From an uncultured Lachnospiraceae bacterium (GTDB lineage: Bacteria; Bacillota; Clostridia; Lachnospirales; Lachnospiraceae): a stretch of 64,000 nt of DNA. A program made the position numbers and the translations under genes. The notes beneath the pieces are model-generated. The model had not been told where the DNA came from. It made no database searches and saw only the letters and a list, made by a program, of their open reading frames with translations. Location: the NCBI GenBank assembly GCA_946616795.1, contig CAMOJU010000003.1:758-64757 (forward strand), read 5' to 3'. Each line of letters opens with the position of its first letter. The stretch's first letter is position 1. This document shows positions 6,368 to 56,361 of this stretch, piece by piece.

Positions 6368-6556
6368 TTATCCGTTAACCTTTGCAAGAAGGTCATTTAC
6401 GTCAATGCCGTGTACCATGGCAGCTTCCTCAAGGGTCTCGCCCTGGGATGCGGGACATCCGAGACAGTGCATACCGATCTCAAGGAGAGCAGGTGCGATG
6501 TCGGGGTTGATCATGAGTGCTTCGCCGATTGTTGTATCTTTTGTTATCTCAGCCAT
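6368..6556 (-). CDS. DUF1858 domain small protein
   Basis: [11 protein letters not shown]...[23 protein letters not shown] is the typical family pattern. Confidence 0.88.
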
Positions 6557-6887: not shown

Positions 6888-8939
6888 ATGAGTTATGAAA
6901 TGAAGCCCGAATGGGAAGGTTTCAACGACGGCAAGTGGTGCAAAGAGATCAATGTACGTGATTTCATCCAGAGAAACTACACACCTTATGATGGTGATGA
7001 TTCGTTCCTCGTAGGCCCCACACAGGACACAAAGGATCTTTGGGAGCAGGTTCTTGATCTTTCAAGACAGGAGAGAGAAGCAGGCGGCGTCCTTGATATG
7101 GATACAAAGGTTGTTTCTACCATCACTTCACACGGTCCCGGATATCTTGACAAGTCAAAGGAGAAGATCGTAGGTTTCCAGACAGATAAGCCCTTCAAGC
7201 GTTCTATGCAGCCTTACGGCGGTATCCGTATGGCAGAGAAGGCTTGTGCAGATAACGGATACACAGTAGATCCCGAGATTTCCGAGTTCTTCTCAACACA
7301 CAGAAAGACACACAACGCAGGATGCTTCGATGCTTACACACCAATGATGAGAGCATGCCGTTCATCACATGTTATCACAGGTCTTCCCGATGCTTACGGA
7401 CGTGGACGTATCATCGGTGACTACAGACGTGTCGCTCTTTACGGTATCGACAGACTTATCGAGGATAAGGAAGCTCAGAAGGAGTCAACAGGACGTGTTA
7501 TGACAGATGATGTTATCCGTCTTCGTGAGGAGCTTTCAGAGCAGATCACAGCTCTCAAGATGATGAAGGAGATGGCTGCTTCTTACGGATGCGATATCGC
7601 AAGACCTGCTAAGAACGTACAGGAAGCTATCCAGGCTACATACTTCGGATACCTTTCAGCAGTTAAGGAGCAGAACGGTGCAGCTATGTCCCTCGGACGT
7701 ACATCTACATTCATCGACTGCTATGCAGAGCGTGACCTTAAGAACGGTACATTCACAGAGGAAGAGATCCAGGAGTTCATTGATCACTTCATCATGAAGC
7801 TTCGTTGCGTTAAGTTCGCTCGTACACCTGAGTACAACCAGATCTTTGCCGGCGATCCCGTATGGGTAACCGAGTCACTCGGTGGTGTTGGTGTAGACGG
7901 ACGTCACATGGTTACAAAGACTTCATTCAGATACCTCAACACACTTAACAACCTTGGTGCAGCTCCCGAGCCTAACCTTACAGTTCTCTGGTCAACAAGA
8001 CTTCCCCGTGCATGGAAGGAGTTCTGTGCTAAGATGTCTATCAGATCATCATCTATCCAGTACGAGAACGATGACCTCATGAGAGTAACACACGGCGATG
8101 ACTATGCTATCGCTTGCTGCGTATCTTCAATGAGAGTAGGTAAGGAGATGCAGTTCTTCGGTGCAAGAGCTAACCTTGCTAAATGTATGCTTTACGCTAT
8201 GAACGGTGGTATCGATGAGGTTACCAAGAAGCAGGTCGGACCTAAGTACAGAAAGTACGAAGGCGATGTTCTTACATATGACAAGTTCATGCCTATGTTT
8301 GAGGATATGATGGAGTGGCTTGCAGAGACATATGTCAACACACTCAACATCATCCACTACATGCACGACAAGTACTGCTACGAGAGAGCACAGATGGCTC
8401 TTCACGACAGAGATGTAAGAAGATACTTCGCAACAGGTATCGCAGGACTTTCAGTTGTAGCTGACTCACTCTCAGCTATGAAGTATGCAACGGTTAAGCC
8501 TATCAGAGATGAGGACGGCGTGATCGTTGACTTCGAGACAACAGGTGATTTCCCTAAATACGGTAATGATGATGACAGAGTTGACTCAATCGCTCAGGAT
8601 ATCGTATCACTCTTCATGAAGATGATCAGAAGACATCATACATACAGAGACGGATTCCCGACACAGTCAGTTCTTACTATCACATCAAACGTTACTTACG
8701 GTAAGGCAACAGGTAACACACCTGACGGACGTAAGAAGGGACAGCCTTTCGCACCCGGAGCTAACCCTCTTCACGGAAGAGACAGCCACGGAGCAGTTGC
8801 TTCACTTTCTTCAGTATCTAAGCTTCCTTTCATGGATGCTCAGGACGGTATCTCTAATACATTTACCATCATCCCCGGAGCACTCGGAAAAGAGGATACT
8901 GTATTTGCAGGTGACATCAACGTAGATCTTAATAAATAA
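6888..8939 (+). CDS. pflB: Pyruvate formate-lyase catalytic barrel lacking the C-terminal glycyl-radical domain
   Basis: Motifs [25 protein letters not shown] (active-site Cys-Cys), PFAPGANP. The protein ends shortly after DGISNTF and has no RVSGY motif. Confidence 0.95.
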
Positions 8940-8990
8940 TTTAAGATATCTGATATAAAAGCTTTGGATCAATCAAAGGAGGTAACGGTC

Positions 8991-9212
8991 ATGGAAAATG
9001 AAAAGCTAACGGATGATCAGATGATATCCGACCTGGTTGCCCAGCTCGATGCGGGCTTCGCAAACGGTGTTGGTCATGTAAACGTAGGAACTGAAGAAGG
9101 ACAGGCCGGCAGCAGATCAGTTCAGACTATGGGTTGCACAGACTGTTCACGTACGCCTCTCGCATGCAGCGTACCCACCTTTGAAGATCCGAGACTTGAC
9201 GATTATAAATAA
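8991..9212 (+). CDS. 73-aa PFL-associated peptide: copy of the radical-domain N-terminal segment plus CxxC-x6-C
   Basis: AAGGAGG RBS and ATG at 8991. ISDLVAQLDAGFANGVGHVNV aligns without gaps to [21 protein letters not shown] of the next gene. Confidence 0.75.
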   Translation: MENEKLTDDQMISDLVAQLDAGFANGVGHVNVGTEEGQAGSRSVQTMGCTDCSRTPLACSVPTFEDPRLDDYK

Positions 9213-9233
9213 TTATTACAGGAGGAAAATAAA

Positions 9234-9479
9234 ATGGCAGACGCAAGCAAAGCACAGATCAACAATCTTGTTTCATTATTGGACGGTTATGCTACAAAGG
9301 GTGGACATCACCTTAATGTTAATGTACTTAACAGAGAAACTCTTATCGATGCTCAGAAGCATCCCGAGAACTATCCTCAGCTCACAATCCGTGTATCAGG
9401 ATACGCAGTAAACTTCATTAAGCTTACTCCCGAGCAGCAGGCTGATGTTATCTCTCGTACATTCCACGAGTCTCTCTAA
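9234..9479 (+). CDS. grcA: Autonomous glycyl-radical domain (GrcA/YfiD-like) completing PflB
   Basis: GGHHLNVNV and [21 protein letters not shown]. Confidence 0.92.
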
Positions 9480-9495: not shown

Positions 9496-9550
9496 AAAAA
9501 ATACCCCCTGACGCTAAGCACAAGCGCAATGCGTCAGGGGGTATTTTTTT
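9496..9550 (+). terminator. Intrinsic terminator of the pfl operon
   Basis: AAAAAATACCCCCTGACGC ... GCGTCAGGGGGTATTTTTTT. Confidence 0.9.
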
Positions 9551-9677
9551 ATACCGTTTGGAAAATATAAAATAAAGAAATCAGGGTATTTTCTTGGGGA
9601 AATAATTGCAGAAATATGGTAAAATATTGAAGTATGTATGATAATATGCCGATAGACTATATTGGTATTTTCAAATT

Positions 9678-55584: not shown

Positions 55585-56361
55585 ATGCAGGGTAGAATTC
55601 ATTCACTTGAGAGTTTTGGTACGGTGGACGGACCGGGAGTCAGATATGTAGTATTTGTACAGGGATGTCCAATGAGGTGTGCATACTGTCACAATCCCGA
55701 TACATGGGAGATGAATGCGGGCACACTTATGGAGCCTTCATATATCATAGAACAGTATGAGAGAAACAAAGGCTTTTACACAGATGGTGGTATCACTGTT
55801 ACAGGCGGCGAGCCACTTATGCAGATTGATTTCCTCATCGAGCTCTTTACTCTTGCGAAAGAAAAAGGCATCCATACGTGTATTGATACGTCAGGTATAG
55901 CATTTAATCCTAATAACGAGGAGTATGTAAAAAAGGTAGACAAGCTCCTGCCACTCACAAACCTCATTATGCTCGATATCAAGCATATCGACCCGGAGAA
56001 GCATAAAGAACTGACACAGCAGCCCAACGACGGAATACTTGCTTTTGCAAAATATATAGATGAAAAAGGCGTGGATATCTGGATCAGACATGTGGTGGTA
56101 CCCGGTATCACAGACGATGATGTATATCTTGAAAAACTCGGATACTTCATCGGCGGTCTTAAGAATCTGAAGGCTCTCGATGTATTGCCGTACCATACAA
56201 TGGGCAAGCCCAAGTATGAGAAGCTTGGCATAGAATACAAGCTAAAGGATGTGCCTGCCATGGACCAGAAGACCGTCATTGAGAAAAAGAAAGTGATCCT
56301 CAAGGGTATCAAAAAGAGAAGGAACGAGGACGGAACAGATCACTTTAATGAGGAAGGATAA
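55585..56361 (+). CDS. pflA: Pyruvate formate-lyase activating enzyme (radical SAM)
   Basis: HSLESFGTVDGPG, CPMRCAYCHNPD, GGITVTGGEPLMQ, LPYH. Confidence 0.95.
   Translation: MQGRIHSLESFGTVDGPGVRYVVFVQGCPMRCAYCHNPDTWEMNAGTLMEPSYIIEQYERNKGFYTDGGITVTGGEPLMQIDFLIELFTLAKEKGIHTCIDTSGIAFNPNNEEYVKKVDKLLPLTNLIMLDIKHIDPEKHKELTQQPNDGILAFAKYIDEKGVDIWIRHVVVPGITDDDVYLEKLGYFIGGLKNLKALDVLPYHTMGKPKYEKLGIEYKLKDVPAMDQKTVIEKKKVILKGIKKRRNEDGTDHFNEEG

Follow-up and report, generated by a model that had tools for sequence, protein, structure and literature searches.

A conserved cysteine-bearing small protein encoded between the large subunit and the glycyl-radical subunit of naturally split pyruvate formate-lyase in Lachnospiraceae

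In many Lachnospiraceae of the gut and rumen, pyruvate is cleaved and formate produced mainly by pyruvate formate-lyase (PFL), the founding glycyl radical enzyme (GRE). Another GRE, the class III ribonucleotide reductase NrdD, holds a Zn(Cys)4 site within its glycyl-radical domain, with the four Cys residues on the chain that carries the radical glycine.

When the PFL of E. coli is cut after residue 695, the remaining enzyme is catalytically competent with the spare part YfiD, binding of YfiD is too weak to be detected, and the enzyme is poorly activated (PMC8683613). Two elements aid the formation of the complex, namely the retained segment 696-733, which duplicates strand beta10 of YfiD and also favours activation, and the N-terminus of YfiD; the corresponding segment of PFL and YfiD holds strand beta10 (y-beta1 in YfiD), which completes the barrel (PMC8683613). 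Small Cys-bearing subunits of enigmatic role are co-encoded with the catalytic subunit in three other GREs (BSS beta/gamma, HPAD gamma and MASS beta/gamma/delta), and are HiPIP- or rubredoxin-like proteins with four-ligand Fe or [4Fe-4S] sites (PMC13450708). A 2026 review of GREs reports small subunits only for HPAD, BSS and MASS, treats spare parts only as add-ons to an intact PFL, and makes no mention of a naturally split PFL or of an accessory subunit of PFL (PMC13450708). Among the NCBI models only GrcA3 is represented, and the literature searched for GrcA3, for split PFL and for a small subunit of PFL yielded no description of a component like the one presented here, in agreement with an earlier reading of this DNA made from its letters (the sequence-only reading).

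The window, a stretch of 64,000 nucleotides from contig CAMOJU010000003.1 of an uncultured Lachnospiraceae bacterium (GCA_946616795.1), carries an operon of three genes, pflB, a small ORF and grcA3 (Table 1). Its pflB gene, the sole PFL of the 2.4-Mb window genome, encodes, as judged from its sequence and its model matches, a PFL barrel without the glycyl-radical domain, in which RVSGY is absent. The break is located after ALGKED, at the equivalent of residue 695 in E. coli, and is thus found at the same point as in the engineered tPFL (after ALGKDD; PMC8683613). The large subunit then continues into a tail of 13 residues, which is not found in canonical PFL, is kept in all split loci, and runs on into a Cys motif in those loci that are referred to below as tail-type. 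The product of grcA3 scores 159.6 bits against the NCBIfam model NF038360 (autonomous glycyl radical cofactor GrcA3), for which the cut-off is 158. The terminator closing the operon has a long loop and was missed by a consensus scan, and was seen by folding.

Table 1. Coordinates of the features of the split PFL locus in the window.
Feature	Coordinates	Strand	Description or evidence
DUF1858 / 'hybrid-cluster-protein-associated redox disulfide' protein	6368-6556	-	62 aa; HCLGCP motif; divergent from pflB
pflB, large subunit	6888..8939	+	683 aa; PF02901 2.5e-215; TIGR01255 (formate C-acetyltransferase) positions 1-665 of 744
Large-subunit C-terminal tail	8898..8936	+	13 residues; tail alignment; strand-like
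RBS of the small ORF	8976..8982	+	AAGGAGG; sequence
Small ORF	8991..9212	+	73 aa + stop, ATG at 8991; ORF, homologues, selection
Small protein, N-half	9009..9095	+	residues 7-35; helix + GHVNV strand-like segment; homologous to GrcA3 residues 4-32 and PflB ~678-709
Small protein, C-half	9132..9209	+	residues 48-73; GCTDCSRTPLACSVPT, then acidic/aromatic end; same module as tail-type large-subunit tails
RBS of grcA3	9220..9225	+	AGGAGG; sequence
grcA3, glycyl-radical subunit	9234..9479	+	81 aa; RVSGYAV; NF038360 GrcA3
Intrinsic terminator closing the operon	9496..9556	+	-34.6 kcal/mol, z -9.1, then T-run
pflA, PFL activase	55585..56361	+	TIGR02493, 292.5 bits

The genes that usually follow grcA3 in relatives are pflA and a gene for a 56-aa 2x[4Fe-4S] ferredoxin. 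In most relatives pflA is located directly after grcA3, whereas in the window it lies 46 kb downstream of the operon; the intervening region (9678-55568) encodes a GGDEF-EAL protein and four giant ORFs of 4052, 2959, 1806 and 1978 aa. The three ORFs of the operon (6888-9479) share one reading frame with a single TAA between each, an arrangement that is kept in only 7 of the 90 loci of relatives (not, for instance, in L005) and that is probably due to chance rather than to readthrough. Upstream of pflB, a homologue of the DUF1858 protein was found within 2.5 kb in 40 of 57 loci of the small-ORF type, and this protein may serve the operon as a redox partner.

The ORF of 73 residues encodes a genuine protein, as the sequence-only reading had assumed, and this protein is strongly conserved and so far unnamed. 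Its homologues form 1516 clusters at 90% identity, nearly all of 66-75 aa and all labelled hypothetical, and 215 clusters at 50% identity in a whole-library profile search; relatives are present in at least 547 species-representative genomes. Over 41 alignable codons the mean pN is 0.105 and the mean pS is 0.712 (ratio ~0.15), which indicates strong purifying selection across hundreds of species. The consensus of the family comprises IDDLVxMLDxxMxxGxGH(V/I/M)NV, a variable acidic linker, DC-x4-6-AC-x-VPTL-xx-G(L/I)D and an acidic end. Residues H29, C52, C59 and P62 are invariant in 49 diverse members. The expectation that homologues keep the HxNV segment and the cysteines was thus borne out for H29, C52 and C59, but not for C49, the first Cys of the window protein, which is not conserved in distant members. 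The small ORF has no family in Pfam or NCBIfam and no match to NF038360 at E<=1, and a PDB sequence search with the window protein returned nothing meaningful. The AF2 monomer of the small protein, based on a 28-sequence alignment, has a mean pLDDT of 60.7 with helix 8-24 alone confident. A pseudo-fusion, obtained by translating 6888-9476 with TAA read as G and modelled with an 82-row, partly paired alignment, has a mean pLDDT of 46.6, PFL barrel included, and nothing was drawn from this model.

Several comparisons identify the N-half of the small protein as a homologue of the GrcA3 N-terminus, i.e. of a helix followed by a beta10-like docking strand. The ungapped identity of 9/21 residues with the Grc subunit, from which the sequence-only reading had started, was found as stated, and only 2 of 2000 shuffled versions of the small protein attained it (p ~0.001). 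Alignment of the two families with hhalign pairs small residues 7-35 with GrcA3 residues 4-32 (29 columns, P 5.9e-5), and an HMM of 88 diverse members matches all tested GrcA3 proteins at their N-termini (E 6e-9 to 1e-5) as well as residues ~678-709 of intact PflBs. When compared with all 18,950 NCBIfam models, two distant members (P0187 and P0264) match GrcA3 only, at positions 2-30 (E 1e-4 and 9e-5), and genome-wide searches with the family profile also returned this segment of one PflB and one GrcA3. The small protein displays the pattern of an N-terminal docking helix and a beta10-type strand (xxLVxLLDGY...GGHHLNVNV), and the hydrophobic face of the N-half (L15, V16, L19, F/M23) is retained in the alignments. 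The earlier assignment of GGxHLNVNV to barrel strand beta10 agrees with the structure-based description of this segment (PMC8683613). A likeness to E. coli YfiD, in its disordered N-terminal part, was considered and rejected: it involved the GGxHLNVNV strand alone, and similarity to the E. coli sequences, PFL segment 696-733 included, came to a negligible 2-3 bits with approximate versions of these sequences.

Beyond this segment the two proteins diverge. The small protein continues with a variable linker of ~15 residues and with the Cys segment GCTDCSRTPLACSVPT (residues 48-63), which is found, as had been noticed from the sequence, where the Gly-radical loop would follow; RVSGY is absent from all members. 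Because the match of distant members covers positions 2-30 of the 78 of NF038360 and, at 22 bits, falls far below the cut-off of 158, the small protein falls outside the GrcA family and is unable to carry the radical. It resembles the GrcA/YfiD, GrcA2 and GrcA3 spare parts in its ~30 homologous N-terminal residues, in a gene that adjoins GrcA3 and in serving the same enzyme; unlike them, it possesses neither the glycyl-radical loop nor the C-terminal helix, and its Cys motif has no counterpart in the spare parts.

A paralogous family of 65-75 aa proteins, which have the N-half pattern IDDMIAFLDGTMEKGVSRLKV... and Cys residues of their own, is also without a Pfam or NCBIfam family. It was found in the window genome outside the window (G000:C30:15896-16027) and at three further loci (L124-L126); these genes are unlinked to PFL, and their neighbours include MarR/FabH and mfd genes.

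The C-half provided a new result: according to the profile matches, it is a module that in other split PFLs is fused to the end of the large subunit. The motif DC-x4-6-AC-x-VPTL-x-G-LD-acidic, present in the window protein as DCSRTPLACSVPTFEDPRLDDYK, recurs in longer large subunits as a tail immediately preceding the stop codon (...GDLSIDLESGCDCGPDMSCGIPNLMEGIDDNEAGN and ...GDLDVDHLDQCEDFACNIPNLHQGLDRDE), and degenerate forms of the tail also exist (e.g. ...FELEPDCACCEPN...). The C-half of the small-protein profile matches such tails with E 3.5e-4 and 4.6e-4, and in another family of Clostridia, in which the large subunit ends in ...DDCTNMACSVPTLHEGIDEE, with per-genome E values of 1.2e-6 and 1.7e-6. 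A split-PFL Cys module is here defined by the motif (D/E)C-x0-8-C-x-(V/I)P(T/N)(L) ... G(L/I)D with an acidic end, encoded at the junction between the large subunit and GrcA3, and present only with a split PFL. Since its N-half is homologous to GrcA3 and its C-half is the same as the tail module, the small protein is a chimera of the GrcA3 docking end and the large-subunit tail module. Unequal recombination between similar strand-like segments, i.e. GD(I/L)x(V/I)DL in the tail, GH(V)NV(D)V in the small protein and HHLNVNV in GrcA3, would be a simple route to such a chimera.

A chimeric, duplication-like origin would also fit a non-functional relic of a partial duplication, and a small Cys peptide located near the radical SAM gene pflA in most loci could be taken for a ribosomal peptide precursor that is the substrate of a radical SAM maturase. 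We consider these readings highly improbable. No dedicated maturase, as is adjacent to SCIFF-type Cys peptides, and no dedicated protease or exporter was found in any locus, the neighbours being pflB, grcA3, pflA and the ferredoxin gene only; furthermore, the same motif belongs to an enzyme of 700 aa in tail-type loci, and the gene is under strong purifying selection in hundreds of species.

The distribution of the module was scrutinized in 151 genomes, comprising the window genome and one genome from each of 150 other Lachnospiraceae genera, by comparing GrcA3 matches with small-ORF matches. A split PFL, with GrcA3 as a short separate gene, was found in 62 of them. The small ORF is present in 42 of these 62 genomes; among the other 20, nineteen have a longer large subunit (691-733 aa) with a fused tail, and the twentieth has a contig too short to judge. 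The Cys module, as small ORF or as tail, is therefore strictly associated with the split state, being present in 61 of 61 determinable split genomes and in none of the 89 non-split genomes. The small ORF itself was found in none of these 89 genomes, an apparent match in G078 being due to the N-half of the profile aligning with PflB itself. The co-occurrence with split pflB that the sequence-only reading had anticipated was thus observed, with the addition that 3 of the 42 small genes are unlinked from the operon; strict synteny of the small ORF was dropped as a rule for the same reason. In 88 of 90 fetched loci the small gene is located between a PflB of ~680 aa and GrcA3, the other two loci being cut by contig ends, and the same order was found in members as distant as E 1e-6 and in other families of Clostridia. 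In gut and rumen Clostridia the small protein constitutes a widespread third component of split PFL, which the literature searched does not describe and whose putative function is discussed below.

In the three genomes with an unlinked small gene (G002, G040 and G068) this gene is intact, and the large subunit and GrcA3 remain together; the small protein can therefore, as far as gene position indicates, act in trans. Two of these genomes, G068 and G002, have large subunits without Cys, which shows that a physical tether is not required for the module. The unlinked small ORF of G040 (contig C7, L121) adjoins a gene for a flavin-reductase/rubredoxin-domain protein, a single case that suggests a redox context. 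In two other genomes the match to the small-ORF profile is broken by a stop (G014 and G043), the ORF of G014 ending after GCTDCAK. G005, a sister species from the genus of the window genome, encodes an ordinary PflB of 767 aa that is intact, and lacks the small ORF, and therefore the type of PFL locus varies within one genus.

When canonical intact PflBs served as outgroups in a tree of the PflB core, the split enzymes grouped in a single clade, and monophyly of the main small-ORF group was supported with 100/99. One distant small-ORF locus grouped as the sister of tail-type loci (97/90), and therefore the small-ORF and tail arrangements interconvert. The tail-type group also includes nested PflBs that are intact; in three of these re-fused enzymes (G012, G102 and G080) ALGK leads straight into xNLVxLLDGY and the module has been lost, which ties the module to the split state and indicates that it is dispensable once the radical domain is covalently re-attached. 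Another intact PflB, of 774 aa (L127, G132:C26), keeps the Cys module in fused form, its barrel and radical domain being separated by an internal insert (...ALGKSNMLFVNDTPDVTCGCEEVTCAVDANDQQIENLV...).

The sequence-only reading had proposed a decoy that plugs the open barrel and competes with the radical subunit, as a chaperone, inhibitor or redox- or metal-gated switch. In such a decoy the GrcA3-like helix and strand would form the plug, the protein would act as an inhibitor or as a chaperone displaced by activated GrcA3, and the Cys residues would provide a redox or metal gate. The true homology of the N-half to the docking segment, its retained hydrophobic face, the complete absence of the Gly loop and the largely disordered state of the protein alone in AF2 all fit such a decoy. 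The Cys module of tail-type split PFLs, however, comes without a decoy segment, and the interconversion of the tail and small-ORF types places the conserved function in the C-half. Moreover, the small gene sits between the genes of the two subunits and is co-transcribed with them, with a strong RBS on both, and in E. coli an overlapping duplicate of the beta10 segment aids, rather than hinders, the binding of the spare part (PMC8683613). A decoy is thus unlikely, and competition with the radical subunit was not upheld as its role; a transient placeholder or chaperone role is possible. A positive role in assembly or servicing is suggested instead, because the gene is co-encoded between the subunits, the tails carry the Cys half alone, the two arrangements interconvert, and the module is lost upon re-fusion.

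On balance we favour, as somewhat probable, that the small protein is a chimeric accessory or assembly subunit of naturally split PFL with a putative Cys2/His redox or metal site. The GrcA3-like half would anchor the small protein where the large subunit ends and GrcA3 begins, probably by pairing with the conserved tail strand FAGDINVDL and/or with the edge of the barrel. This would set the Cys2(+His29) site and the acidic end at the position where tail-type enzymes carry them. From there the small protein, or the tail, may promote the formation, activation or retention of the non-covalent complex of large subunit and GrcA3, a task that would be needed only if the radical domain is a separate polypeptide. 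The Cys2/His site and the acidic peptide would form the working end, whose thiols may bind a metal or serve as a redox-sensitive element. We infer the docking site, the assembly role and the metal or redox chemistry from the sequence comparisons, the assembly role in particular because of its analogy to the two E. coli elements (PMC8683613) and of the association with the split state. As in the O2-cleaved E. coli enzyme with its segment 696-733 and the YfiD N-terminus, a second copy of the beta10 segment would lie beside the incoming radical domain (PMC8683613), and the proposed role, i.e. promoting complex formation and activation, is the same; here, in contrast, the copy belongs to a separate gene product that is fused to a Cys/acidic module. 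Several points speak against the accessory reading: an N-half seated in the exact GrcA3 site would mean competition and not help, GrcA3 is without a Cys to pair with, the spacing of the Cys residues varies, and the Cys-free large subunits of G068 and G002 show that the module can do without a tether.

The Cys residues themselves fit a defined metal site poorly, their spacing varying from 0 to 8 residues, with certain tails having just CC or DCACC. Like the small subunits of BSS, HPAD and MASS, the small protein is Cys-bearing and co-encoded with a GRE catalytic subunit; unlike them, it has only two invariant Cys and one His (C52, C59 and H29) at variable spacing, so that a four-ligand site (Cys4 or Cys3His) is not present, the tails having 2-3 Cys, and it has no detectable similarity to these subunits. 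NrdD likewise has a Cys cluster immediately beside the glycyl-radical domain, but here the 2-3 Cys belong to another polypeptide, either the small protein or the tailed large subunit.

Conserved thiols of variable spacing, which in several tails form a vicinal CC, would suit a protector, in which a Cys pair beside the radical domain would sense oxidants, or would quench or shield the glycyl radical in a reversible manner, and would thereby spare GrcA3 from cleavage by transient O2. The flavin-reductase/rubredoxin gene next to one unlinked copy and the CxxC redox-disulfide protein (DUF1858) divergently upstream in 40 of 57 loci point in the same direction, and for HPAD gamma a protective role as a reductant of the radical has been put forward, although without evidence (PMC13450708). 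These arguments are entirely circumstantial, and they leave unexplained the tie to the split state, the loss on re-fusion and the conserved VPTL-x-G-LD-acidic part; we regard thiol protection as quite unlikely.

A more elaborate and rather doubtful proposal is that the small protein is a dedicated 'cofactor-exchange factor' for a radical carried by a protein, in which a placeholder mimicking beta10 would keep the large subunit folded while it is without the radical, then cede the site to freshly activated GrcA3 and expel GrcA3 damaged by O2, with the thiols or a metal serving as redox switch. If this were true, split PFL would be a purpose-built, repairable three-part machine of strict anaerobes. 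Whichever the role, nature has repeatedly cut PFL exactly at the position used for the engineering of tPFL with YfiD (PMC8683613), each time adding an extra module as a tail or as a protein. The recognition and activation of a detached radical domain, and its holding on the barrel, are now directly testable, and the components described here offer parts for repairable, more O2-tolerant glycyl radical enzymes.

Detached radical domains were also found outside the operon. Several genomes with the three-gene operon encode extra stand-alone GrcA3 genes without PflB upstream (L115-L118, L120 and L135), which are likely true spare radical subunits.
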